A stretch of DNA of 64,000 nucleotides from Escherichia coli. GTDB taxonomy: Bacteria; Pseudomonadota; Gammaproteobacteria; Enterobacterales; Enterobacteriaceae. The DNA is taken from assembly GCA_902500125.1 (NCBI GenBank), contig GCA_902500125.1_4132.1. The stretch is one strand, 5' to 3'. Each line of letters begins with the position of its first letter. Positions within the stretch are counted from its first letter, which is position 1. The position numbers were made by a program, and so were the translations under genes. Positions 4,503 through 28,695 of this stretch are shown one piece after another. Under the pieces are notes generated by a model, which was not told the origin of the DNA, searched no databases, and saw nothing but the letters and a program-made list of their open reading frames with translations.

Positions 4503-4531
4503 TTGGACAAGAACAGATATTGTGATATAAT
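4503..4531 (+). promoter_or_regulatory. sigma70-type promoter with TG-extended -10 (TTGGAC-N17-TGnTATAAT)
   Basis: hexamers and spacing read directly; followed by hairpin plus T-run at ~4567-4586. Confidence 0.5.
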
Positions 4532-4614: not shown

Positions 4615-4824
4615 ATGGCTAAAGAAACTAACGCACAAGTACTAGATATCACCGACTTCGACCGCACTGTGAACTATATTCAATTCCAGATTCATCAAGC
4701 AGAAGAAGCTCTAGCAGTATTCCACGGTACTGGTGCAAGGCCAATCCGTTTTGCTCACTTGATTGCATGGAAGAAAAGTCTTCAAGAAGAACTATCTGAA
4801 CTGCGTAAAGCAAATCGTAAGTAA
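4615..4824 (+). CDS. hypothetical small protein
   Basis: track ORF; RBS AAAGGG upstream; flanked by hairpins. Confidence 0.5.
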   Translation: MAKETNAQVLDITDFDRTVNYIQFQIHQAEEALAVFHGTGARPIRFAHLIAWKKSLQEELSELRKANRK

Positions 4825-4889
4825 TTTATCTTACCGCCTCATCATTTTTGATGGGGCATTTTAATCATATAAAGTAAGAGGATTTATAA

Positions 4890-5396
4890 ATGAGTGTTGA
4901 ATATTGGTTTTTGTTTGTGTGTATTGGTACACTTGCATTAATCACCATTGGATTGATTTTCAATACCATGATTAGTGGAAGTAAGTACTTTAAGACATTC
5001 CAACTTTTAATGTCTGCTATGCCATATAGTGCTGATGCCGAAAAAACAATTTCTCTAATTTTAGATAAGTTCGATGCAAATCTTTTGGTGGCTAAAATTT
5101 CAGCATGTGATACAAATATTTCATTTTACACTGTAGAGACAGAACAGAATGGGATTGATACACAATACTCAAATCCAGTAGTTGCTGAAATTTTCATTGG
5201 TTCAAAATATTATGCCTATGGATATGTAAGAAAATATTATTCAGAAGCAAAAGCTGAGTTGACGAAGAAGCGACCATCAATAAAAACTTTAAAACGCATC
5301 ATTGCGTTGGAAAAATCACTTCGTGGTCAAACAAGCGTTAATGAGCCACCATCAGTGATTAAATCCAAAAAAAGTAATGTTGTGGAGTTGGAGTAA
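4890..5396 (+). CDS. membrane-anchored hypothetical protein
   Basis: track ORF; N-terminal hydrophobic helix; RBS AAGAGGA. Confidence 0.55.
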   Translation: MSVEYWFLFVCIGTLALITIGLIFNTMISGSKYFKTFQLLMSAMPYSADAEKTISLILDKFDANLLVAKISACDTNISFYTVETEQNGIDTQYSNPVVAEIFIGSKYYAYGYVRKYYSEAKAELTKKRPSIKTLKRIIALEKSLRGQTSVNEPPSVIKSKKSNVVELE

Positions 5397-5686
5397 TGGA
5401 ACCAGAAAAATCAAGAAAAATTCTTATTGATGTCCAAACTAAATTATTAGATATTATGGAAATCATCAATGAGTTACCACAGGGTTATCAGTACAAAGTT
5501 CGTGAAATGTTATCTTGTGCCGAAACCGTTGTTTCTATGTACGATGATATTCAACATGGTATTATCCCTGATATTCTCAAAGATGACGTAAATATTAACA
5601 CTGAGGTAAAAGAAACTAAATTAGAATCAGAAACAGTATCTAATAAAAAAGTTCTAGACCTTAGTGGTATAAAAATTAATATCTAA
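5396..5686 (+). CDS. hypothetical protein
   Basis: track ORF; start overlaps upstream stop. Confidence 0.5.
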   Translation: MEPEKSRKILIDVQTKLLDIMEIINELPQGYQYKVREMLSCAETVVSMYDDIQHGIIPDILKDDVNINTEVKETKLESETVSNKKVLDLSGIKINI

Positions 5687-7892: not shown

Positions 7893-8069
7893 ATGACACA
7901 TGAAGAATGGATAGAGTCACTAAAATATAAACATGATCATTTTGGATTTGGTATACGCCAAGGCCATTATGATGTTTTGAACGATAAAAAAACGTTCGAA
8001 TCATTGGTTTTGGACGAAGATTCCAACCACTGGTTCATCTACGAGCTTGCTATTAGAGATAAAAAATAG
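7893..8069 (+). CDS. MTHEEWM-family mini-protein
   Basis: track ORF 7875..8069 trimmed to conserved MTHEEW start. Confidence 0.55.
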   Translation: MTHEEWIESLKYKHDHFGFGIRQGHYDVLNDKKTFESLVLDEDSNHWFIYELAIRDKK

Positions 8070-8074
8070 TAAGA

Positions 8075-8410
<336 letters not shown>

Positions 8411-8411
8411 A

Positions 8412-8594
8412 ATGACACACGAAGAATGGATGTCCAAACAGCATAAAGAACATGACTGCTTTGGGAATGGCATTCGTCAGGTACATTATGATATATTAAG
8501 AGATGAAAATCTTTTCAGGTCATATGTTTTGGATACCAGAAAACCCTGGTTTATATGCGAACTGGCATTTAGAAAGTCAAATAATCAAAACTAA
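8412..8594 (+). CDS. MTHEEWM-family mini-protein
   Basis: track ORF 8394..8594 trimmed to MTHEEW start; upstream DNA near-identical to that before 7893. Confidence 0.55.
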   Translation: MTHEEWMSKQHKEHDCFGNGIRQVHYDILRDENLFRSYVLDTRKPWFICELAFRKSNNQN

Positions 8595-8610
8595 ACAAGG
8601 AATACAAAAA

Positions 8611-8829
8611 ATGGAAACAACTTTATTTGAAGTTATTCAATCATTAAAACCTGAAGATGAGGTTCAAGTACTACTACATGGTTATCGTGTAAAAGGTACT
8701 GTGGTTTTAGTCAATGATACAACATTGGTTATTACAGAAACAAACCCATATGATAGTAATCAACTTGCCAATATCCATATCGATATCACTGGAATTATTG
8801 GTGTCGGTGTATCTAAAACACTTGCATAA
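8611..8829 (+). CDS. hypothetical small protein
   Basis: track ORF 8503..8829 trimmed to ATG (METTLFEV) downstream of the previous gene. Confidence 0.45.
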   Translation: METTLFEVIQSLKPEDEVQVLLHGYRVKGTVVLVNDTTLVITETNPYDSNQLANIHIDITGIIGVGVSKTLA

Positions 8830-8882
8830 ATCATTAATTCATTATATAATGATTATCACTGGTTCTAGATGAGGATAATATT

Positions 8883-9155
8883 ATGCATTTTGAAAAATTC
8901 AACGTAAATCGTAACACACGCATTGAAGTTCTTTATGAAACTCAAGACACCATTAGTATTCGTACAAGTAGTGGGGATGTATATCATGACTGTACGATTG
9001 GCTGGGAACAGGGAAGAACGCGTAGTGCAGTATTTGATAATTATCGCTTTTATCAAGGAGACACTACGATTTGGCCTGAATACGTAGAAGATATTGCGTT
9101 TGAAGATGAACATAAAGATGAATTTATCAAATTTAATCCTCAAACTGAATCATAA
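8883..9155 (+). CDS. hypothetical protein
   Basis: track ORF; RBS GAGGA upstream. Confidence 0.55.
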   Translation: MHFEKFNVNRNTRIEVLYETQDTISIRTSSGDVYHDCTIGWEQGRTRSAVFDNYRFYQGDTTIWPEYVEDIAFEDEHKDEFIKFNPQTES

Positions 9156-9172
9156 ATAATGGGACATCACAT

Positions 9173-9288
<116 letters not shown>

Positions 9289-9292
9289 AAAT

Positions 9293-9394
<102 letters not shown>

Positions 9395-9399
9395 AAACC

Positions 9400-9560
<161 letters not shown>

Positions 9561-9564
<4 letters not shown>

Positions 9565-9721
9565 CACATGAAGAATGGATGAATGACATTAATTTTAGAT
9601 ATTCGGGTATCGGTAGATGGCTAAAGTATCATTGGGAATTCATTTCAGAGCCACATATGTATGATAAACTTATCAACGATCCAGCATATGAAATGTACTT
9701 AATTGAACTACTGGTACGAAT

Positions 9722-9725
<4 letters not shown>
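9561..9725 (+). CDS. MTHEEWM-family mini-protein (54 aa)
   Basis: own translation; ATGA overlap with previous paralog; near-duplicate of 9400. Confidence 0.5.
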
Positions 9726-9894
<169 letters not shown>

Positions 9895-9897
9895 AAG

Positions 9898-10311
<414 letters not shown>

Positions 10312-10368
10312 CTAAATAATTCAGTACTGAGGATATTAATATGTTTAAAGATGAACGTCCAGATTTGT

Positions 10369-10406
<38 letters not shown>

Positions 10407-10414
10407 GAATTCCA

Positions 10415-10750
10415 CAATCAGACGTATATGGTGTAAGTTACGTCGATGCAATCCAGAACAAGATCTCTGGTACTCTAGGAAGTGGTGAATGTTAACCTAG
10501 ACGGGTTTGATAATTGGACGATAGGCAATTATTACTTGACTAGCAGGTTTAAACTAGAGGTGACAGTCCTTCATCAAACTGGAAAACCGGATGGACTTTT
10601 ATTTAAAAGGGTAAGGCGTGGAAATATGTTTACAGAAGTTGCTTTTAGTAGCCTGTACGCCCCACGTCAAGGTAGCCGAAAGGTAAGTTAAAACGGGTGG
10701 TTATAAAGCTGAATTGACAGCGACGTTTAAAAGCGTCACCATCCATTTTT
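10415..10750 (+). ncRNA. candidate structured ncRNA of unknown class
   Basis: ~330 nt between promoter and T8 run; GC-richer than flanks; GNRA-like CCGAAAGG hairpin; only ORF has no convincing start. Confidence 0.35.
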
Positions 10751-10769
10751 TTTAATTAAAGTTGGTGAT

Positions 10770-11159
<390 letters not shown>

Positions 11160-11184
11160 TTTTCAGTACTGATATAATTAATTT

Positions 11185-11421
<237 letters not shown>

Positions 11422-11428
11422 CTAAATC

Positions 11429-11733
11429 GGGCCATTAGCTCACGGTGGTTAGAGCAAACGACTCATCGACAATGGTGACTTTCATCAGTAATGGTGATTG
11501 AAAAACTGGATGAATTCAGGGAAATCTTAACACGTAATGGTGATGACAATCCTGAGCCAAGCCCAATAAGCGTATTGGGAAGGTGCAGAGACTAGATGGT
11601 ACAGTACGATCTTACTGTGTAATACATCATTAGCGTCCGGCATCCCTATGGGATGATGATATAGTCCGTACTATAGTGAAAACTATAGATTATACGAATC
11701 GTTAGGTACTGTGTTCGACTCACAGATGGCTCA
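11429..11733 (+). tRNA. tRNA with CAT anticodon (Met or Ile2) interrupted by group I intron
   Basis: 5' half GGGCCAT-TA-GCTC..GAGC-A-AACGA-CTCAT; 3' half AA-TCGTT-AGGTA-CTGTG-TTCGACT-CACAG-ATGGCTC-A; all four stems pair only after removing ~230 nt from the anticodon loop. Confidence 0.7.
11467..11696 (+). ncRNA. group I intron in tRNA anticodon loop (no ORF)
   Basis: follows exon U, ends in G; core-like elements AATTCAGGGAAA (P), AATCCTGAGC (Q), CAGAGACTA (R), GATATAGTCC (S) with complementary P4/P7 strands. Confidence 0.65.
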
Positions 11734-11752
11734 CAAACTTTGAAATAAAATA

Positions 11753-12457
11753 ATGAAAATAAAATTAGAATATCCATACAGTAATGATTGGGAGAATGGG
11801 TATATACAGATAAACCCTGAAGGTAGAAGAACTGTAATACTTTATAATTCTCCAACTGATAGAAGCAGTACTCAATATGCCAGATATCTATTAGCAGTAC
11901 AAGAAGGTAGATATTTAACTGAGTCTGAAGAAGCAGACCACATTGATAATGATTTCACAAATGATGATTTGTCAAATTTGCAAATACTTCATGTTGATGA
12001 ACATCGTTATAAAACACATAAGAATGGTGTGCAAGCACGATATGATTCATTTGTATGTGCTTGTTGTAATATGGAATTTACCCGTAGGCATACTAAAGTG
12101 AAATCATATACAAAATATTGTAGTGTTGAGTGTTCACAAAAAATGGTCAAGCCTCCTTCTAATACAAAGGGTGGTGAAACATCTGTTGATTATGAAAAGG
12201 TAAAAGAATATATTAACCAAGGTTTATTAGATACTGAAATTGCTAAAATAATGAATATTAGTTCAGGTTCAGTACTGAATTATAGAACCAAAAATAATAT
12301 ACCATCTAAGAAATTTGCAAACGTAAAACGTTTAGAAGATAACATAGAAGATATCAAACAACGTTTGAATAATGGTGAGAAAAAAGTTAGTATATATGAA
12401 AGTTATGGTGCTTCCAAAAATGTGTTTGCTAGATTTTTGAAAAGACATGGCTTATAA
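11753..12457 (+). CDS. HNH homing endonuclease-like protein
   Basis: track ORF; EADHIDNDFTNDDLSNLQILHVDEHRYKTH HNH-type motif plus Cys-rich KYCSVECS; immediately downstream of intron-containing tRNA. Confidence 0.65.
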   Translation: MKIKLEYPYSNDWENGYIQINPEGRRTVILYNSPTDRSSTQYARYLLAVQEGRYLTESEEADHIDNDFTNDDLSNLQILHVDEHRYKTHKNGVQARYDSFVCACCNMEFTRRHTKVKSYTKYCSVECSQKMVKPPSNTKGGETSVDYEKVKEYINQGLLDTEIAKIMNISSGSVLNYRTKNNIPSKKFANVKRLEDNIEDIKQRLNNGEKKVSIYESYGASKNVFARFLKRHGL

Positions 12458-12465
12458 ATAATTAT

Positions 12466-12538
12466 GACTCTGTAGCACAATAGGTGGTGCGATTAACTGT
12501 TAATTAATTGGTTGGGGATTCGAGTTCCTCCAGAGTCG
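12466..12538 (+). tRNA. tRNA-Asn (anticodon GTT)
   Basis: acceptor GACTCTG/CAGAGTC, D-stem GCAC/GTGC, anticodon stem ATTAA/TTAAT with loop CTGTTAA, T-loop TTCGAGT. Confidence 0.8.
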
Positions 12539-12560
12539 CAAAAAACAACGAGAGGTATAC

Positions 12561-12818
<258 letters not shown>

Positions 12819-12826
12819 GAATTTAA

Positions 12827-13228
12827 ATGAAAAAGAATGACTTGATCAAAATGCTTCAAGAGATTGACGGCAATCCAGAGATTGTTATTTGGAATGGATA
12901 TGTCGATGATTATATGAACATCGAAAAAGGCTTGACTAAAATCACTCTAGTCAAAGAAACTGAACAGTTCCTTCTGGAAGCATTAGTGCACGAATGGTGC
13001 AAACGTAACAATACATTCGACATTCCAGAAGATCAACGAACTAAGATTGCAGAACAAGCTAAAAAACTTCATAAGAAACGTGAATACGATTTCCAGAACC
13101 CACATGTTACTGAAGACGAATTCAATCACTGGTACGGTAAAAAGAAATTGACAAAGTATGTCCTTTCACCTAAACTACGTGGTAAGACTTCACTTGGTGT
13201 ATTCAACGCCGCAGACTTAAACTACTAG
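12827..13228 (+). CDS. hypothetical protein (paralog of 13241..13456)
   Basis: track ORF; N-terminus similar to next ORF (DLIKxLQ..PE..I...DDY). Confidence 0.55.
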   Translation: MKKNDLIKMLQEIDGNPEIVIWNGYVDDYMNIEKGLTKITLVKETEQFLLEALVHEWCKRNNTFDIPEDQRTKIAEQAKKLHKKREYDFQNPHVTEDEFNHWYGKKKLTKYVLSPKLRGKTSLGVFNAADLNY

Positions 13229-13237
13229 CGGGTATTA

Positions 13238-13642
<405 letters not shown>

Positions 13643-13661
13643 AGAGGTACTTCGAGTATGC

Positions 13662-13787
<126 letters not shown>

Positions 13788-13789
13788 TA

Positions 13790-13876
<87 letters not shown>

Positions 13877-13931
13877 GACTGCCAAACAGCTTGAAGTACT
13901 TTGTAGTGCTGCACCTATGCCGACACTTGGC

Positions 13932-14041
<110 letters not shown>

Positions 14042-14045
14042 ATCT

Positions 14046-14116
14046 GGTTGATTAGTTAAATGGTATAACACGGATCTTGTAAGTCTGAGTCATTAGTTCG
14101 ATTCTAATATTGACCA
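14046..14116 (+). tRNA. tRNA-Thr (anticodon TGT)
   Basis: acceptor GGTTGAT/ATTGACC (two G-U), D-stem GTTA/TAAC, anticodon stem CGGAT/GTCTG with loop CTTGTAA, T-arm ATTAG-TTCGATT-CTAAT. Confidence 0.65.
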
Positions 14117-14181
14117 CAAATATATTCTTAGAAATAACATTTTTCTTGAAAATAAATACTCCATACTATATGGAGAACTAT

Positions 14182-14577
14182 ATGAAAGAAAAACGTTATT
14201 GTGCATGTTGTAAAATTGAATTGGTTCGAAAGGGTCAAACAAAATATTGTAGTGTTGCATGTCAACAAGAGCTACAATATCAACAGAAAGTTGATAAATG
14301 GCTTAACGGTGAACATCCAGGATATAAAGGTATTACTATACAGTTATGTCCATTTGTGAGAAGATATCTACATGAAACACGCGGAACTGCATGTGAAGAG
14401 TGTGGATGGGATAAACGTCATCCAACAGATGGTGCAGTACTGACAGAAGTTGAGCACATTGATGGTGATGCTACAAATAATGACCTACCAAATTTAAAAA
14501 TCCTTTGCCCTAATTGTCATTCGATGACACCAACATTCAGAGCAAGGAACAAGAACTCCGCAAGGAATCGTAAATAA
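14182..14577 (+). CDS. HNH endonuclease
   Basis: track ORF 14110..14577 trimmed to ATG after GGAGA RBS; Cys-rich N-terminus and EVEHIDGDATNNDLPNLKILCPNCH HNH motif. Confidence 0.7.
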   Translation: MKEKRYCACCKIELVRKGQTKYCSVACQQELQYQQKVDKWLNGEHPGYKGITIQLCPFVRRYLHETRGTACEECGWDKRHPTDGAVLTEVEHIDGDATNNDLPNLKILCPNCHSMTPTFRARNKNSARNRK

Positions 14578-14593
14578 TTTTTTAAGGTACAAT

Positions 14594-15010
14594 ATGACAT
14601 ACAACATTGTTAAAATGGTGAACTACGTATTAAAAAACAACGCATGGTCACTGCATGATGTACAATTAGAAGATATTGGTGAAGTTAGAGTTTTTTGCTA
14701 TGATGACGATTTGAACGAAACTACTGATTTGAGTAAATGTTTTAATATTTTTCTTGGTTATGAAATCAATAATCATTTTTATTCATTTGATGTGTATTTT
14801 GAACGAGTTAAAATCAGAATTGCTAATGTAAATAGTGATTATTATGACACTAGAATTGAATTGAATTTTGACGATATTGATACTGAAGAAAAATTCTTTC
14901 AGTACTGCCTCGTTAACAACACATTAGGATTAACATTTGATGACATTAGTGCTATCCTTAAAGTTCAAAGATTGATTCCAGAAGAGGTATTAAATCCGTT
15001 AAATGACTAG
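14594..15010 (+). CDS. hypothetical protein, EExFQxSTV-motif family
   Basis: track ORF; TEEKFFQYCLVNNTLGLTFDD motif. Confidence 0.55.
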   Translation: MTYNIVKMVNYVLKNNAWSLHDVQLEDIGEVRVFCYDDDLNETTDLSKCFNIFLGYEINNHFYSFDVYFERVKIRIANVNSDYYDTRIELNFDDIDTEEKFFQYCLVNNTLGLTFDDISAILKVQRLIPEEVLNPLND

Positions 15011-15368
15011 TCTAATAGTACGTATAATGCAAGATGTTTGTAATAACCTTTATACAGGCAATTTTGACGATCCGAACATAAAAATATTATGTTATGATGG
15101 TTTTACAATGGTACATCCAGCCTATTCAAATAATATCTACGTAGCATATACAGGTGAAAATCTATTATATCAATTTGATATATATAGTACAATGACAAAG
15201 ATAATTTTGGATGCATCTAAACCAGCAATCTTTATTGCTTCTCATGATTACCATTACACTGAAGAATCACTATTTCAGTACTCAATGATTAATGACATTG
15301 GTGGGTTGACATTGGATGAGGTTAATGCTATACTAGCTGTCTCACGTTTGGTTAAAACCCACAATTAG
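15003..15368 (+). CDS. hypothetical protein, EExFQxSTV-motif family
   Basis: track ORF; TEESLFQYSMINDIGGLTLDE motif; tandem paralog of 14594. Confidence 0.55.
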   Translation: MTSLIVRIMQDVCNNLYTGNFDDPNIKILCYDGFTMVHPAYSNNIYVAYTGENLLYQFDIYSTMTKIILDASKPAIFIASHDYHYTEESLFQYSMINDIGGLTLDEVNAILAVSRLVKTHN

Positions 15369-15377
15369 GAGATTCAT

Positions 15378-15569
15378 ATGTTCTGGAATTTATTATGCTT
15401 GTTTGGTCGTACATTGGTTCTTGCTATTATTCATACACCTGGTATTCGTAATTATGTTTCTTATGAATTTAAGAAAAATTATCACAACAATACTGAAGTT
15501 CGTACAACTAAGATGTGCAAAGACTTCAAGGTAGATGTTCCACCATTCAAGAAGTACGAGGATGAATAA
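15378..15569 (+). CDS. small membrane protein
   Basis: track ORF; hydrophobic N-terminus; RBS AGGAGA. Confidence 0.5.
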   Translation: MFWNLLCLFGRTLVLAIIHTPGIRNYVSYEFKKNYHNNTEVRTTKMCKDFKVDVPPFKKYEDE

Positions 15570-15853
15570 TGGAATTCATTGTTGCACCTGATGAACTTAA
15601 AACATTCACGTTCAGAGATAATAACAATTATCCTTATACAAATCATTCATTGAATTCATTACATGTTATTGCAATCATTGCATCTGAATACAGGGATAAT
15701 CCATGTATTGATTTTAAAACCACTGATGGCGAATATACATGGGTGATCCCAAAAGATAAATATAGTTATCAAGGGGCAGTAGAAATTCGTGACTCGATTC
15801 TAAAACAAATCGAAGATGGAAATACTCATCCTAAACTAAACACTCAGTACTGA
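15569..15853 (+). CDS. hypothetical protein
   Basis: track ORF; ATGA-type overlap upstream. Confidence 0.5.
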   Translation: MEFIVAPDELKTFTFRDNNNYPYTNHSLNSLHVIAIIASEYRDNPCIDFKTTDGEYTWVIPKDKYSYQGAVEIRDSILKQIEDGNTHPKLNTQY

Positions 15854-15866
15854 AATCGTTTAACCC

Positions 15867-15921
15867 GATAGCTTCTAGTCAGTACTGATTCCTCCTTATG
15901 TATAGAAGCTATCACTTTTTT
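15867..15921 (+). terminator. hairpin (GATAGCTTCTA..TAGAAGCTATC) plus T-run
   Basis: 11-bp inverted repeat with large loop followed by T5-6; approximate coordinates. Confidence 0.45.
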
Positions 15922-16009
15922 ACGTATAATGATATTACCCTCAAATTCATTATATTCGTTACCCTCTAACAGTATCTTTTTATTCCTCTTGGATGCTGTA
16001 ATTTAGAAG

Positions 16010-16069
16010 TTGACTTTTTAACTTCTACTGTGTTATACTTAAGGCTGATTCGATGAATCGGCCTTTTTT
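16010..16069 (+). promoter_or_regulatory. promoter (TTGACT-N17-TGnTATACT) followed by leader hairpin plus T-run
   Basis: hexamers at ~16010-16039; GGCTGATTC/GAATCGGCC hairpin and T6 at ~16043-16069, just upstream of ORF 16079. Confidence 0.45.
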
Positions 16070-16078
16070 CTTATATAG

Positions 16079-16507
16079 GTGAATGCAATGAGTTATTTGT
16101 TTACTTTAATTGATAAGTATGTTGACATTGTATACCGTCAAGTTTGTAGTGATACGTTTGAAACAAAAAACCCAATTAGAGATGGCATTTTTGATGTTGT
16201 CGTTGGATCATTTTTGAATGGATACACAGAGACATTATACAACAGTAATAATATTTTTATTTCAGTTCAATCCAGACATACATCAGACTATGCTGTTAGC
16301 ATTGATATTTGGGAAAATAATATAGAAATAGATATAACGGAACATACTAACATTCATGTTGATGATACATTTAATCAATTAACTGAAGAAATGTACTTGC
16401 AGTTGAATTTTGTACATGATCTTACAAATATCAGTTATGATACATTAAGGAAAATATGTTTTCTTAGTGGGGTGATCCGTAGTAATATGAGTAAGGATGG
16501 GAAGTGA
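16079..16507 (+). CDS. hypothetical protein, EExFQxSTV-motif family (divergent)
   Basis: track ORF; LTEEMYLQLNFVHDL motif. Confidence 0.5.
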   Translation: MNAMSYLFTLIDKYVDIVYRQVCSDTFETKNPIRDGIFDVVVGSFLNGYTETLYNSNNIFISVQSRHTSDYAVSIDIWENNIEIDITEHTNIHVDDTFNQLTEEMYLQLNFVHDLTNISYDTLRKICFLSGVIRSNMSKDGK

Positions 16508-16925
16508 AATGTTAAAAATTCCACCTAAGTCGTTAACACATCTTATTGAATGTGGTGTAATATTTTCCGAAGGTGATACCTCATCATACACATTGGTCGA
16601 TGAACCTTATAATTTTTCATACCAATCTTATAAAAATAATTCTAAAATTTCTTGTAGATATGCTGAAAACATATTAATAGATGTTTCGTTACATAATGTT
16701 CCGAAATTTTACATTGATATCTTTGGTGATTCTTTGACAATTCGAACATATGATTATTTTATTAATAAAGACCTCTTGAGTCTTCCAATTGAACATGATA
16801 CTATAGATTCAGAGATGTTCTTTCAGCTATCAACAGTTTACGATTTACAGGGTTTAACTGTTGAGCAGTTGAATGGAATATTTGAGATTTCACGAAACAT
16901 ACGAAGCAGGAATAAAAATGTCTAA
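16497..16925 (+). CDS. hypothetical protein, EExFQxSTV-motif family
   Basis: track ORF; DSEMFFQLSTVYDLQGLTVEQ motif. Confidence 0.55.
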   Translation: MGSEMLKIPPKSLTHLIECGVIFSEGDTSSYTLVDEPYNFSYQSYKNNSKISCRYAENILIDVSLHNVPKFYIDIFGDSLTIRTYDYFINKDLLSLPIEHDTIDSEMFFQLSTVYDLQGLTVEQLNGIFEISRNIRSRNKNV

Positions 16926-17328
16926 TATTTTAAATGAAAAAACAGTTGATGTTGTTATTGGTGTTCTTAACACCGCAACTTCATTTCAGAAGAAACACAG
17001 TGTTGTATACTTTGGTGAAGATTGTTGGCTGAACTATACTAATAATTCGTTTATAATTCGTGTAGAGGCTGATGATATTGGATTAACCGTTCAGGTAGGA
17101 TGTGCCAAAACTGACAAACAAATCACTGTCATTGTTGATAAACTTACGTCTTCTTTTTATGATAGTATAGATGATTGTGAACACTATAGTTCAACATTTT
17201 ATGATACAGAAGAAGAACATTTTATGGAAAGTACTGTTCAAGAGTTAGCTATTCCATATAAGCTAATGAAAGCCGTGAGTGATTTAATTTTAAAATATAA
17301 AAAAATAGGAGTTACTAATGCAATTTAA
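16918..17328 (+). CDS. hypothetical protein, EExFQxSTV-motif family
   Basis: track ORF 16873..17328 trimmed to ATG (MSNILNEK); TEEEHFMESTVQE motif. Confidence 0.55.
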   Translation: MSNILNEKTVDVVIGVLNTATSFQKKHSVVYFGEDCWLNYTNNSFIIRVEADDIGLTVQVGCAKTDKQITVIVDKLTSSFYDSIDDCEHYSSTFYDTEEEHFMESTVQELAIPYKLMKAVSDLILKYKKIGVTNAI

Positions 17329-17764
17329 TGGTAAAGTTTCCAAAGTAGGTTTGGTTTTTGAAAACTGTGAATTTGTTGATATTGATGTAAAGAATGTTTT
17401 ATGGATGCATATTGCTGATGAGAAGACTCTTTGTAGCCGTTTTTCAAACGGACTGACAATTAGTACTGTTATCGGTGAGTTCGGTATTGCATTACGCAGC
17501 AATACACCATCGGATTTCATGGACAACTCTACACTGTTAGACCGTTTAAAAATGCGTGACGTTACACACGTTTATCTATATGATACTAACGGTGTTGAAC
17601 AGCGTTATGTAGTTGAATGGGCTAATTATAACCTTAGTGATCAATATTCAGTAAACCAGCGTGTTCAAATCACCCCTGGTGGTAATATTGTGTTTGTTAG
17701 TTCAACTGGTAAATTAATCAGTGTAGATGATAAAAATATTGATCTATTCACTGCATATAACTAA
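17318..17764 (+). CDS. hypothetical protein
   Basis: track ORF; overlaps upstream stop. Confidence 0.55.
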   Translation: MQFNGKVSKVGLVFENCEFVDIDVKNVLWMHIADEKTLCSRFSNGLTISTVIGEFGIALRSNTPSDFMDNSTLLDRLKMRDVTHVYLYDTNGVEQRYVVEWANYNLSDQYSVNQRVQITPGGNIVFVSSTGKLISVDDKNIDLFTAYN

Positions 17765-17775
17765 CAAGAGCTTTT

Positions 17776-18195
17776 ATGAAAACAATCAAAGTGCATTTCA
17801 AAGACACATGGACAGAAGTGAGTACTGGTAATATTCAGGATATTTTATATAGTACTGAAACTATTCATGTTTATGATGAAGATACTGCTGCCGAGCAGTT
17901 AAAAGTTTTGCATCGTAGTGTTGGTGAGCACACTGAATATGGCATTAAACATACTCGTGAATTACTTAATACTAATCACATTGAAACCCGTAAAGCAAAC
18001 TTATCAAAAGAAGAAATGTTCGATTTCATCCTGAACCATAAAGTTCATATTGAGCCTGATGGGTCTATATGGGAGAACACTGCTGGACAAAAAGTGCTGA
18101 AAAAATATCATGTTTCAATTGATAATGTAAAAATGTCAGGGTATGATTTGGAAGATGCAATTAATGAATATGTATCTAGGCAGAGGGCAAATTGA
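17776..18195 (+). CDS. hypothetical protein
   Basis: track ORF. Confidence 0.55.
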   Translation: MKTIKVHFKDTWTEVSTGNIQDILYSTETIHVYDEDTAAEQLKVLHRSVGEHTEYGIKHTRELLNTNHIETRKANLSKEEMFDFILNHKVHIEPDGSIWENTAGQKVLKKYHVSIDNVKMSGYDLEDAINEYVSRQRAN

Positions 18196-18566
18196 TGAGC
18201 TTGATAACATTTACAATTATTTGTTGCATTACTATTGTACTTTGTCGCCTGATTCATGTATACTCATATCATAAAGCGTTGCGAATCGAACAAGAGATTT
18301 ACAACGAAAACCGAGAACCAGAACCAGTCAAGAAGCCACCATCACCTTATGGGTTGAAACGTGAGATGCATTCTCAAAGTAAAAAGTGGGGTTATGCAAT
18401 TACTAAAAATGGCTACATCTATACTGCAAGTAATGGTTATTTTCAAATTCACCACGAATTAGAAGTGGCAGTTCAAATTTTGTGGGAGATGGAGGACATT
18501 GGTGGTTATGAGCGTACTAAGTTTGAATTCATATCAAATGATCCAGGAACTTCACGAGAAACATGA
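18192..18566 (+). CDS. membrane-anchored hypothetical protein
   Basis: track ORF; N-terminal hydrophobic helix; ATGA overlap. Confidence 0.5.
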   Translation: MMSLITFTIICCITIVLCRLIHVYSYHKALRIEQEIYNENREPEPVKKPPSPYGLKREMHSQSKKWGYAITKNGYIYTASNGYFQIHHELEVAVQILWEMEDIGGYERTKFEFISNDPGTSRET

Positions 18567-25848: not shown

Positions 25849-26814
25849 GTGAAAAAGCTTGATTTAAATACAATTGCCGAAGAAGTTCTGGATGAATGTT
25901 TTGCTAATGAAGAAGTCAACACACTAGAAGCCTTAGATTTCGTTGAAGATAAAGATGAAAATGAAGGTAAAGTACAAAGCAGTTTCAAATATAATATTAC
26001 ACTTAAGCGACCACCAAATGTTTCCAATGAAGATCTAATTCGTGATATTCAAGCTGGTATCAATGTAAAGAAAAACACTGAACTGTTAGTTCGTTACAAT
26101 TATGGACTTATTATTGATGTAGCAAGTAAATGTACTTGTTATATCCCATTTGAAGATAAGATTTCATATGGTGTTGAGGGGTTCATGAGAGCACTAAAAA
26201 CCTTTGATCTTAATAAGAATGTTAAGTTCATTACCTATGCTTCTTCTAGTATTTACATGACAGTCTATAACGAAAGTTCTGACGCTAACTATATGGTACA
26301 CTTCCCACGTTATATGAGTGTTCATAAGATCAAAGTAAAAAGATTCTGCCAGGAATATATGCGTAAACATGGTGTTCGCCCAACTCCTGAAATAATCTCA
26401 GAGGGTACTGGGATTGAGATTCAGCATGTTAATAACTGTTTGTTATTTCAAAGCGAATACACTTCTCTGGATGCACCATTAGACGGTGTTACCGATGGTA
26501 CACTAGGTGACATTATTCATTCACCTGCTTCTGATTTTAACCTCAATGTTGATAGTATTCGTGCACCTTTACGTTATGCTATCAATGAACTGACTAACGA
26601 ATTGAGTACTAAAGAACGTGAGATTATCCAGCGTGTTCATGGTCTAGGTGAATATGAACCTGAAACGCTTCGTGAGATTGCTGATAATGGTTTTGTTGAT
26701 GATAATGGAAAATATGTTAAATCCCGTTCATCAATACACCGAAAGTACAGTGAAGCTATGCAAAAGCTTAAGAAGCTAGTACTTGCAAAAGGGTACGAAT
26801 ACGAAGATTTCTAA
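25849..26814 (+). CDS. sigma-70 family RNA polymerase sigma factor (phage-encoded)
   Basis: GTG start after AGGAG RBS; region-2-like YGVEGFMRALKTFDLNKNVKFITYASSSIYMTVY and region-4-like EREIIQRVHGLGEYEPETLREIAD. Confidence 0.6.
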   Translation: MKKLDLNTIAEEVLDECFANEEVNTLEALDFVEDKDENEGKVQSSFKYNITLKRPPNVSNEDLIRDIQAGINVKKNTELLVRYNYGLIIDVASKCTCYIPFEDKISYGVEGFMRALKTFDLNKNVKFITYASSSIYMTVYNESSDANYMVHFPRYMSVHKIKVKRFCQEYMRKHGVRPTPEIISEGTGIEIQHVNNCLLFQSEYTSLDAPLDGVTDGTLGDIIHSPASDFNLNVDSIRAPLRYAINELTNELSTKEREIIQRVHGLGEYEPETLREIADNGFVDDNGKYVKSRSSIHRKYSEAMQKLKKLVLAKGYEYEDF

Positions 26815-26819
26815 AGAAA

Positions 26820-26848
26820 AAAGGTTGGCTTATGCCAACCTTTTTTTA
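26820..26848 (+). terminator. rho-independent terminator (GGTTGGCTTATGCCAACC plus T7)
   Basis: perfect stem and T-run directly after sigma factor stop. Confidence 0.7.
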
Positions 26849-26884
26849 TGGGATGAAGTAAAAGTTTGTGATATAATTATCTTG

Positions 26885-27370
26885 TACAATTCTGTTGGCA
26901 TGATATTCATGTACCTGATCCACTCGAAAACGTAGAGGGCAGTTGAGCAGTCCGACAGTGCGAACAGCAAAAGAAACCCGTTAGATGTGGGCATAGTTTG
27001 AACCCCTCACGGCAATGCGGCTGTATAAAGAACCACGTTAGGATAGCTGGTGGTTCCTTGATAGACATATAAGGATAACACCTTACGAATTATCTAAGGG
27101 AGAGTTATCGAATTTTGTACAGGAAAGTTGCGTCCAAAATTTGAGTACTCACATTAAGTATTTGATTGCATAGATACTTAATGAAGATACACTATGTTTA
27201 AAAGTGTAGACCGTCATATGAAACTGAAGTAGAGAGAAACAGGATGACCCGCTTTCGCACTCGTTATGAGTAATCTTCAATGCAATAGCTCTGATACCAT
27301 CAGCGTCAAATTTCCCTCCGTGCGGGGGGGAAGAAAAATCCCTTCCTCAAATCCCGTCAATATTAAAAGT
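26885..27370 (+). ncRNA. candidate large structured ncRNA of unknown class
   Basis: ~500-650 nt with no ORF >=60 aa on either strand; visibly GC-richer; TGTGATATAAT extended -10 promoter at ~26868-26878 like those before tRNAs; GC hairpin near 27310-27330; next promoter at ~27375. Confidence 0.4.
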
Positions 27371-27465
27371 CCTTGACAGTTATGATTCATTCGCGTAGAA
27401 TACGTAGTATTAGAAGCGAACAGACATCTCGAAGAGATGGATGATTAACCACTAAGGAATATCTA

Positions 27466-27675
27466 ATGAATTCAGTAATCTTTTTAATTATTGCTCTTTC
27501 ACCACAATCTGGTGTACAAATCACCCCAATGAATTCAATGAATCAATGCATTGCAGTACGTGACAGTACGTATGAACAAGTAAACAGCGTTTCACTTAGA
27601 ACAGTTGGTGAAGAATTAATGTGGTGTTACAATAGTAATACTAAAGAAAAACTAATTGTTGGACAAACAGAATGA
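27466..27675 (+). CDS. hypothetical small protein with hydrophobic N-terminus
   Basis: track ORF; RBS AAGGAA. Confidence 0.5.
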   Translation: MNSVIFLIIALSPQSGVQITPMNSMNQCIAVRDSTYEQVNSVSLRTVGEELMWCYNSNTKEKLIVGQTE

Positions 27676-27899
27676 GTTATGGTGTTCGTTTTGAGATTCG
27701 TTCTATTGTTATCAATGACGAGAAACAAGCATCGTTGGATGACGATATACGAGAACTATATCTATCATGTATCCGTGCAAAATCTGAAGCAGATGCATTA
27801 TCACAAATGATTGGTTTTAATTTCTTTCATGGATACTATTTGGTACGAGTTATCGAAGTTAAAAAAGTCACTTTTGAGTGTCTTGCTGGAGAAATATAA
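27672..27899 (+). CDS. hypothetical small protein
   Basis: track ORF; ATGA overlap. Confidence 0.45.
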   Translation: MSYGVRFEIRSIVINDEKQASLDDDIRELYLSCIRAKSEADALSQMIGFNFFHGYYLVRVIEVKKVTFECLAGEI

Positions 27900-27900
27900 A

Positions 27901-28695
27901 ATGAGCACTATAGATGAATTGATTCGCCGGAATTCAAAATACTACGAACCATCAGAAATTGTCGGCAACATTACTAAATCTGAGTTCGGACCAAATACTC
28001 GAAAACTCATTCATGTAATGTCACGTGATGGCTTTAAATGTGATTGTTGTGGTGAATCCAATGTGGTATTCACTTTACATAAGCACAGTACTAAAGACCG
28101 TTATAAATTCAGACCTTATGTACTTAAAGGGAAACGCCTTGTACGCATGACGTTAGACCATAATGTACTGGACTGTCTTCAGGGCGGTAATGATAAAGAG
28201 AACATGACTGCATTGTGTGAGGATTGTAACGCATTACGCCAGCATAAGTTTGCTGAGTACAGTGAGTTTAAGCACTGGTATCATAACGAGGATCGTTCTA
28301 TCGAGCCTGACGTTAACTACTGCTTCATTGAGTATATTAAGAATGCTAAAGATACATACATTCTTAAATCAATGTCACCTATTACAGTGTTCCCTGAGAA
28401 TCTATTCAGTACTATGCAGCGTGATTTTAAACGTGGTATCATTAATGCATTCAAACATTTAGACAAAGGTATCAAGCACTTTGAGGTGCAATGCTTAAAT
28501 GAAGGAATGAATCGTTTAGTACAAATTTACATGAAATCATTTATAGGTGTTGACACCGCACGTCTACCAGTATATAATTACTTTATTGAAAGCGAAGAAG
28601 GTGAATCACTTCGTGATTATGGTGAAAGATTTAATAATAAAGTTTCCACTGCAATCGCAAACGAGATTCATTACTATAAACCATATGTAATTTAA
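27901..28695 (+). CDS. HNH endonuclease
   Basis: track ORF 27811..28695 trimmed to ATG (MSTIDEL); CDCCGES Cys cluster and LDHNVLDCLQGGNDKENMTALCEDCNALRQHK HNH motif. Confidence 0.65.
   Translation: MSTIDELIRRNSKYYEPSEIVGNITKSEFGPNTRKLIHVMSRDGFKCDCCGESNVVFTLHKHSTKDRYKFRPYVLKGKRLVRMTLDHNVLDCLQGGNDKENMTALCEDCNALRQHKFAEYSEFKHWYHNEDRSIEPDVNYCFIEYIKNAKDTYILKSMSPITVFPENLFSTMQRDFKRGIINAFKHLDKGIKHFEVQCLNEGMNRLVQIYMKSFIGVDTARLPVYNYFIESEEGESLRDYGERFNNKVSTAIANEIHYYKPYVI

Follow-up and report, generated by a model that had tools for sequence, protein, structure and literature searches.

A candidate family of large pseudoknotted RNAs carried in several copies by jumbo phages of Enterobacterales and found in bacterial islands

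We sought to determine what is encoded by a stretch without long open reading frames (ORFs) within 64,000 nucleotides (nt) of DNA deposited under Escherichia coli (GCA_902500125.1, contig GCA_902500125.1_4132.1). The whole of this DNA is referred to here as the window. The stretch lies between a phage sigma-factor gene (25849-26814) and a small ORF that starts at 27466, and an earlier reading of the sequence (the original prediction) had proposed a candidate large non-coding RNA (ncRNA) at 26885-27370. The explanation that best accounts for the data as a whole is a free-standing ncRNA gene of ~450-480 nt at 26884-27360 on the plus strand, probably specifying a folded RNA that acts in trans, and we hold this reading with considerable confidence. 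Beyond what had been predicted, the element is a member of a multi-copy family, contains two pseudoknots and is also present in bacterial islands.

The region from 26800 to 27470 is 98-99% identical to the Escherichia jumbo phages G17, 121Q, PBECO4, phAPEC6, slurp01 and others, whose genomes are ~350 kb (genus Asteriusvirus according to the G17 record); the genome from which the window derives is of the 121Q/PBECO4/G17 type. No ORF of 60 amino acids (aa) or more occurs on either strand from 26815 to 27465. At 651 nt this is the longest such stretch in the window. It had been described as the only long one, but 9156-9771 (616 nt) and 11160-11645 (486 nt) are also without ORFs; the latter two hold tRNA genes and a group I intron. 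The GC enrichment that had been described is borne out, with 42.6% G+C for the element (26910-27360) and 41.4% across 26885-27370 compared with 34.0% for the window; among segments of 451 nt, the element falls within the top 0.7% by G+C content. Homology defined by nhmmer extends from 26908/26910 to 27360/27364; the span 26885-27370 runs approximately from the predicted transcription start to the end of conservation.

Evidence for an RNA comes from comparison of the element with its relatives. To gather copies we searched IMG/VR and metagenomes for sequence patterns and then applied nhmmer, which gave 46 distinct full-length copies, 35 of them less than 97% identical and used for counts. (One scan pattern, GACCGT-N-TAGAGAGAAAC, also retrieved ~25 unrelated loci in IMG/VR, in coding sequences of other phages, which were discarded after nhmmer.) RNAalifold, applied to 24 copies, placed 77 pairs, 48 of which show compensatory double changes. 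Our curated structure comprises 89 pairs in 16 helices, including two pseudoknots (PK1 and PK2) added by a separate scan of all column pairs. Across the 35 copies, 91.8% of the cells in these pairs are canonical, as against 40-45% when the 3′ partners are moved by 1-3 columns (slid control) and 75% after shuffling (n = 500). Pairs in which both sides have changed number 63 of 89, compared with 22-30 in the slid control. The covariation score is 0.437, compared with 0.06-0.09 for slid and 0.148 for shuffled alignments, and none of the 500 shuffles reached the observed value. The single-sequence fold of the element is also more stable than expected (z = -2.5). Compensatory base pairing of this kind is what marks a structured ncRNA gene, and the overall pattern is one of conserved loops with covarying stems. 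Because G-U or U-G cells (181) greatly outnumber A-C or C-A cells (57), the plus strand is assigned as the strand that is transcribed and folds.

These data bear directly on whether conservation might act on the DNA itself, for instance on a replication origin, a packaging signal or a set of protein-binding sites, occurring at four places in the genome. All copies have the same orientation, long stretches are invariant, and the two occurrences of a short motif, CGUCA(A/G), change jointly in divergent lineages, all of which a DNA element could explain. DNA-binding sites, however, need no compensatory changes, and here such changes keep pairing intact in most of the structure, including two long-range pseudoknots. 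Furthermore, the threefold excess of G-U over A-C is strand-specific, as is typical of RNA, and a conserved promoter lies upstream. We therefore regard a DNA-level element as highly unlikely.

The data favor even less a protein-coding origin, whether as a gene that has decayed or as a group of genuine small ORFs. In several records with automatic annotation, 3-6 'hypothetical proteins' cover the element, and the window copy itself contains ORFs of 50-54 aa. The original prediction had named an intact ORF in related phages, along with a lack of covariation, as outcomes that would speak for such a gene or otherwise against an RNA. Among the 35 copies, however, there is no conserved ORF: the longest is 31-85 aa and shifts in strand, frame and position from copy to copy, and indel runs show no triplet bias, with just 14% divisible by three. 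The curated records of G17, 121Q, PBECO4, slurp01 and phAPEC6 have nothing annotated at the element, and its conserved loops and covarying stems are those of an RNA. We give the coding explanation almost no weight. With a promoter of its own and no conserved reading frame, the element has the features of an ncRNA gene, and the proposal of a large ncRNA is supported. RefSeq likewise has nothing annotated at the locus in an E. coli island that carries a copy (see below), and literature searches revealed no RNA described for these loci, with one recent preprint on genome-language-model mining of non-coding elements outside our coverage. Our analysis thereby corrects annotation that is empty at these loci in curated records and filled with spurious small ORFs in automatic ones.

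We then consider the architecture, given here in window coordinates on the plus strand. The window copy is copy A of the family, and its conserved body of ~450 nt (26914-27360) is delimited by full-length nhmmer matches, alignments and covariation. Sequence comparison shows that a variable 5′ leader precedes it (26884-26913), with a small CAUG/CAUG hairpin at 26899-26911. The distance from promoter to body differs among copies, and a leader stretch, ACAAUYCUGUUG, is common to the window copy and copy C. The body opens with hairpin P1 (26920-26939; CC.CUC/GAGGG), in which all five pairs covary (94% paired) and which presents a conserved 9-nt loop, GAAAAYGUA (GAAAACGUA). P2 (26947-26961; 3 of 4 pairs covarying, 99% paired) is flanked by invariant UGAG and CGAA. 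The P3/P4 domain (26964-27024) consists of P3 (26964-68 with 27020-24) and P4 (26978-81 with 27009-12), both 100% paired with four covarying pairs, around a conserved internal loop (ARAWGAAAC/CAAUGCG) and a variable apical insert. P5 (27030-27056; GAACCA/UGGUUC) covaries at all six of its pairs and is 97.6% paired. P6 (27070-27085; 83% paired, three covarying pairs) lies within the conserved GAUAGACAUAUAAGG...CCUUAC and is followed by the near-invariant CUAAGGGAG at 27093-27101, whose U is kept in 33 of the 35 copies. An optional peripheral module occupies 27102-27150; it is recognized by its presence or absence in the alignments and, from sequence and a minimum-free-energy fold, pairs as a stem AAUUUUG/CAAAAUU with loop UACAGGAAAGUUGCGUC. 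In other copies it is also found at a second site, inside P12.

The 3′ half contains the long-range interactions. P8 (27152-27183) is a long hairpin in which 10 of 10 pairs covary. Its loop (27165-27171, AUUGCAU) pairs over 7 bp with 27280-27286 (AUGCAAU), a strand just 3′ of P10, to form PK1 (27165-27286), which the covariation scan brought to light. It is 99.2% paired with 6 of 7 pairs covarying; at one of these, 19 copies have UA and 16 have CG. PK1 differs in each paralog of one genome (A, AUUGCAU; B, UCAUAU; C, AUUGUAU; D, AUCGAAU). Such paralog-specific sequences fit ordinary intramolecular covariation, and would also fit paralog-specific pairing between molecules. P9 (27187-27209; 96% paired, four covarying pairs) stands directly 5′ of an invariant GACCGU, after which comes a knotted core (27213-27279) made of PK2 (27213-17 with 27244-48), P10 (27225-29 with 27275-79), P11 (27232-36 with 27252-56) and P12 (27259-62 with 27268-71). 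All four helices are 99-100% paired and contain one covarying pair or more. PK2, 100% paired, crosses P11, which itself shows compensatory changes. The most conserved sequence of the core is AUAGAGAGAAACAG....ACCCGCUUUCG, and invariant unpaired nucleotides are dense in GACCGU, AUAGAGAGAAACAG, ACCCGCUUUCG, GAUAGACAUAUAAGG and CUAAGGGAG.

Downstream of the core, the alignment shows a small hairpin, CUGAU/AUCAG, followed by motif M1, CGUCAA (together 27291-27309, with M1 at 27304-27309). The GC-rich hairpin P14 (UUCCCUCC GUGC GGGGGGAA; 27312-27332) bears out the expectation of GC-rich hairpins at this locus; it is 88% paired with four covarying pairs, and at one position U-G alternates with C-G. 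A second CGUCAA, motif M2 (27355-27360), forms the 3′ end of conservation, according to both the alignment and the nhmmer end points. M1 and M2 (CGUCA(A/G); alignment columns 524-531 and 613-620) vary in concert, each reading CGACA in Serratia sp. 2723 and CGAAG in a divergent metagenomic subfamily.

A number of other pairings were considered and rejected. A helix closing the 5′ and 3′ ends (UGA/UCA), proposed by RNAalifold, involves residues that are all invariant and is broken in Serratia sp. 2723; the alternative closures GAUGAG/CUCGUC and CUGAU/GUCAG show no covariation. A long-range helix CUAAGGG/GACCGU from the same program rests on invariant residues and conflicts with the well-supported PK2. 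An apical hairpin in the P4 insert is 29% paired as aligned. A pairing of M2 with an upstream strand (S1:M2), considered as an explanation for the joint changes of M1 and M2, is 71% canonical, and its sole variable position does not covary. Finally, a hammerhead-like arrangement around P2 (CAGAUGAG...CGAA) varies at key positions (GUUGAG in the window copy) and has no Rfam hammerhead match.

The signals around the element delimit a transcription unit. Upstream, the intrinsic terminator of the sigma-factor gene (26823-26847; stem GGTTGGC/GCCAACC, loop TTAT, T-run), annotated at the same place in phage G17, sets the limit of the unit and lies outside the RNA. It is followed by an extended -10 promoter that matches TGTGATATAAT exactly (26867-26877, with the -10 hexamer at 26872-26877), from which transcription is predicted to start at ~26884-26886. 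A strict -35/-10 scan passes over this promoter because it has no -35 element. Exact TGTGATATAAT occurs elsewhere in the window only at 4521-4531 and 9178-9188. The copy at 9178-9188 is just upstream of tRNA-Ser(tga), 10 nt from the gene (9199-9288), so for that tRNA the original description of a tRNA-type promoter is correct. As a bare motif, TGTGATATAAT is not above chance (11 matches with at most one mismatch compared with 5.6 expected). Its position, by contrast, recurs throughout the family: of the 35 copies, all with enough upstream sequence, 33 have TGNTATAAT at a distance of 26-78 nt upstream of the aligned start, those in E. coli and Serratia islands included, and the E. coli island copy carries exact TGTGATATAAT. 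The promoter is therefore part of the conserved unit. Past the element, a promoter scan identifies a sigma-70-type promoter (TTGACA-17-TAGAAT, 11/12; 27373-27401) that is outside the RNA, indicating that the downstream genes have a promoter of their own.

The main rival to a trans-acting RNA arises from an internal signal that resembles a terminator. A 6-bp hairpin followed by U6-7 is found near the 3′ end in 24 of the 35 copies, between M1 and P14, and is absent from the window copy, copy B of 121Q and the copy in the related Serratia phage BF. The element could thus be a cis-acting leader in the form of a riboswitch, attenuator or processive-antitermination RNA of very large size, governing whether transcription passes this hairpin into the downstream genes. 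T-box leaders, large riboswitches and the put and EAR antitermination RNAs similarly have a terminator-like hairpin after a structured RNA, as two thirds of our copies do, and M1 and M2, which flank the hairpin, could both pair with the same upstream strand as alternatives. In the window the element is co-oriented with the downstream ORFs and has no terminator of its own. Unlike those leaders, however, the element matches no family, is much larger than known aptamers and has no common downstream gene, the genes that follow being unrelated at the four phage copies and in the islands; in the window a near-consensus promoter separates it from the next ORF. Moreover, the hairpin is optional, missing from a third of copies, whereas the ~75 nt past it are conserved in every copy. 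Nothing complementary to the variable terminator stems and no covarying antiterminator was found, and an alternation between S1:M1 and S1:M2 pairing has weak support. Together, these observations make a leader unlikely.

We next turn to the distribution of the family. The complete, unannotated relative ECO103 4-12-1 has four copies on the same strand, at 18.2, 128.4, 208.2 and 261.5 kb by blastn, which are ~70-85% identical in blocks with variable segments between them; the 64-kb window holds only one. In a phage collection, we found 257 matching places in 62 records, 3-5 per record, from phages of Escherichia, Salmonella, Klebsiella, Cronobacter, Erwinia, Pectobacterium, Serratia and Yersinia, and partial matches only in a Xanthomonas phage. 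Metagenomic phage contigs (IMG/VR and metagenomes) carry further copies. A divergent subfamily shares the 3′ core, and one of its contigs has T4-like portal and baseplate genes. Serratia phage BF carries a copy with the type-A signature, without the internal hairpin, 4 kb from a homolog of the sigma factor that is 36% identical, from which it follows that the paralogs are older than the split of these phage genera. Flanking and downstream genes differ at all four phage copies, and we found no neighboring gene or protein partner common to the four loci.

Exchange between paralogs is apparent at the A locus. In UE-S1 (1464-1621 of the fetched locus), a type-C 5′ part sits in the A locus, where the record annotates a repeat region. 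In ph0011 (OP557969.1; 601-1300 of the fetched locus), a C/D-type copy with the U-run hairpin occupies the A locus after the sigma-factor gene, and the exchange junctions fall within sequence common to the paralogs. These sequences show that the paralogs recombine with each other.

Copies are also found in integrated elements of bacteria. In Serratia sp. 2723 the RNA gene lies directly after a large serine recombinase gene; in S. fonticola its neighbors are a serine recombinase gene, two ParB/RepB genes and a duplicated rof; and in an Enterobacteriaceae metagenome-assembled genome it stands between thiM and a CI-type repressor gene. Two of 5,426 complete E. coli genomes carry it between ffs and ybaA, in an island of ~10 kb that also encodes a resolvase, a disrupted integrase and the candidate defence system PDC-M45. 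In one of these, LR-29-1 (NZ_AP027515.1; fetched region 7961-18305), the RNA gene occupies a 1.4-kb unannotated gap of an island that has an integrase disrupted by IS3, the resolvase and a set of three genes; two of the three match PDC-M45 (dual-OB, DUF488), and the adjoining DUF4326 gene has no PADLOC match. An island copy is also present in E. coli EEC_W5. No protein is common to three bacterial islands compared, and what is shared between the islands and the phage genome is a single common phage domain, DUF4326, at an unlinked site. Searches of the island genes with Pfam, PHROGs and PADLOC returned integrases, ParB/RepB, the CI-type repressor and PDC-M45, none of them consistently linked to the RNA gene. 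ARAGORN found no tRNA or tmRNA at three bacterial loci, and a plasmid collection contained no copy. This distribution shows that the RNA gene, together with its promoter, moved alone by horizontal transfer into integrase-bearing islands. Separately, S. fonticola GTA-SR07 has two near-identical full-length rof (Rho-modulator) genes in tandem at the island edge (4775-5490), which probably mark an integration site restored by the island.

The dispersal of copies raises the possibility that the element is itself mobile, a selfish element encoding RNA, of intron-like or miniature type, which multiplied by spreading and not because it serves the phage. Several dispersed copies per genome, copies in integrated islands of E. 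coli and Serratia that are unrelated, the switch of paralog type at one locus in ph0011 and the partly converted copy in UE-S1 could all be read in this way, and the window contains both a real group I intron and, 450 nt downstream of the element, a homing-type HNH gene that is absent from phage ECO103. Several lines of evidence argue against it. First, no copy is inserted in a gene, and no intron family matches the element, whereas the real intron is found at 99 bits. Second, the promoter belongs to the conserved unit. Third, the paralogs are ~30% diverged and type A keeps its place near the sigma-factor gene across genera. Fourth, the boundaries in ph0011, lying in sequence shared by paralogs, point to homologous recombination rather than transposition. 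Finally, terminal inverted repeats and target duplications are not seen in the alignments, and no transposase or reverse transcriptase travels with the RNA gene. We consider a mobile element quite improbable.

The element also does not correspond to a known RNA family. The original prediction could not match it to transfer-messenger RNA (tmRNA), RNase P RNA or a group I/II intron and had suggested a comparison with Rfam. Using the 4227 covariance models of Rfam 15 at gathering thresholds, the window yields tRNAs and one group I intron only. At E-values up to 10, the region 26750-27500 gives only weak matches, mostly on the sigma-gene terminator; three chance matches in the 3′ part of the element have E > 2 and 15-18 bits, compared with gathering thresholds of 45-85. 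When 10 diverse members and the E. coli island copy were scanned as well, none had a family match overlapping the element. The same library does recover the intron at 11374-11688, with 99.1 bits, which served as a positive control. Up to the same E-value of 10, the group I intron model RF00028, the RNase P models, and the ROOL and GOLLD models have no match to the element. ARAGORN reports five tRNAs elsewhere in the window and no tRNA or tmRNA at 26885-27370. The earlier failure to place the element by eye is thus upheld, and by these searches it appears to represent a new family of large pseudoknotted RNA without homology to any described family.

Comparison with known systems nonetheless shows what kind of RNA this might be. 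Like group I introns, the element has several hundred nt, a pseudoknotted core and optional peripheral helices, and such introns are frequent in large phages, one of them lying 15 kb upstream in the window. Unlike them, it has no flanking exons, has its own promoter and lacks a conserved G as 3′ terminal residue; we rejected an intron on the further grounds that the element interrupts no gene, being placed between a terminator and a promoter, and ends in a conserved CGUCAA/CGUCAG. RNase P RNA and tmRNA (~350-400 nt) resemble it in size, in multiple pseudoknots and in the trans action proposed here; unlike tmRNA, it has no tRNA-like 3′ end and no tag ORF. The word AUAGAGAGAAAC in the element recalls ACAGAGAGCAAAC in E. 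coli M1 RNA, which we note as a lead only. A word similar to GAGAG lies in a joining region of M1 RNA, whereas here GAGAG is base-paired in P11, with compensatory changes.

In kind, the element seems to stand closest to the orphan ornate RNAs of phages. Like ROOL and GOLLD, it is hundreds of nucleotides long, has many conserved unpaired nucleotides, pseudoknots and optional peripheral modules, and occurs in phages and integrated elements without an associated protein gene. It differs in that its hosts are Enterobacterales, rather than Firmicutes or lake and rumen organisms, in having 3-5 paralogs per genome, and in that the window copy lies 13 kb from the nearest tRNA gene, whereas ROOL and GOLLD are tRNA-adjacent. 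Cryo-electron microscopy has shown that ROOL and GOLLD form RNA-only homo-oligomeric complexes (PMC12286853). A second analogy is to the Pseudomonas jumbo phage PA5oct, which has been grouped with 121Q, PBECO4, RaK2 and GAP32 and in which RNA sequencing defined ncRNA001-004; ncRNA002, annotated 'putative lncRNA', is 451 nt and accounts for 1-5% of phage reads, and the loci were reported to have no known promoters (PMC7318152). The lineages are related, the loci are ORF-free, there are four per genome and one is of the same length, whereas our loci have a conserved extended -10 element upstream. We rejected homology to ncRNA002, as a family profile in nhmmer has no match to it at E = 10 with filters off, and the conserved blocks are not visible there. 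The resemblance is thus better treated as an analogy than as homology.

Taken together, these findings suggest the following course of events. The host sigma-70 RNA polymerase would start at the extended -10 promoter (26867-26877), and the RNA, as the covariation shows, folds into ~14 helices tied by two pseudoknots. It is one of four ancient paralogs in its phage genome, within a family of 3-5 copies in 121Q/Rak2-like jumbo phages of Enterobacterales. Since no protein gene travels with the RNA and the downstream genes differ at every copy, action in trans is most likely, either by the RNA alone or with a factor common to enterobacterial hosts. Few RNAs of at least 400 nt combine interlocked pseudoknots with a large number of invariant unpaired nucleotides, and those of known function are ribozymes or the cores of essential ribonucleoproteins (RNPs); the orphan large RNAs ROOL, GOLLD, OLE and raiA have recently yielded unexpected structures. 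The density of invariant unpaired nucleotides in the core resembles that in ribozymes, RNP cores and ROOL/GOLLD, and the element may accordingly function as a ribozyme, as an RNP core or, comparably to ROOL/GOLLD, by self-assembly, acting in conflict between phage and host or between phage and island. Its presence both in virulent phages and in defence-type islands suggests, speculatively, such a role. A more ambitious version, which we put forward tentatively, is that the family represents a new kind of large functional RNA, either catalytic as a ribozyme or self-assembling through its paralog-specific PK1 pairing, whose phage copies are specialised, which anti-phage islands have captured, and which acts in conflict without a dedicated protein.

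Several observations weigh against a free-standing trans-acting RNA. A scan for terminators and promoters found no terminator 3′ of the window copy, so its 3′ end would have to arise by processing, or transcription would read through into the next transcription unit. In the 24 copies that have it, the intrinsic-terminator-like hairpin comes ~75 nt before conservation ends; if efficient, it would remove the conserved 3′ part (P14 and M2) from most transcripts, and such a loss fits poorly with the RNA-type variation of P14. For M1 and M2 we sought a complementary partner within the RNA and found none, which makes a common trans factor possible. The replacement of an A-type by a C/D-type copy in ph0011 implies that the paralogs may be redundant rather than specialised. 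Expression of the RNA, moreover, is deduced from promoters only, and the evidence fits catalysis, protein binding and self-assembly alike. The setting is a tractable one, combining E. coli with culturable jumbo phages such as 121Q, PBECO4, G17 and phAPEC6, and it offers natural material in the 3-5 paralogs per genome, the paralog swaps and the copies on a defence-type island.

Two further features of the window concern mobile elements near RNA genes. Phage ECO103 4-12-1 is without ~1.1 kb matching 27584-28692, and both flanks align. The missing segment comprises the 3′ part of ORF 27466-27675, ORF 27672-27899 and most of an HNH-endonuclease-like ORF (27811-28695) for which 121Q and ph0011 give the name HNH endonuclease; the segment resembles a mobile homing-endonuclease insertion beside the RNA gene. 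Elsewhere, at 11430-11735 on the plus strand, a tRNA gene with a CAT anticodon is split in its anticodon loop by a 230-nt group I intron (11467-11696; 99 bits in Rfam), with the 5′ exon ending in U and the intron in G. In the raw sequence ARAGORN misses this tRNA, but with the intron excised it reports a 76-nt tRNA-Met(cat). Directly after the gene, on the same strand, is a 234-aa ORF (11753-12457) that could be of the homing-endonuclease type and belong with the intron.

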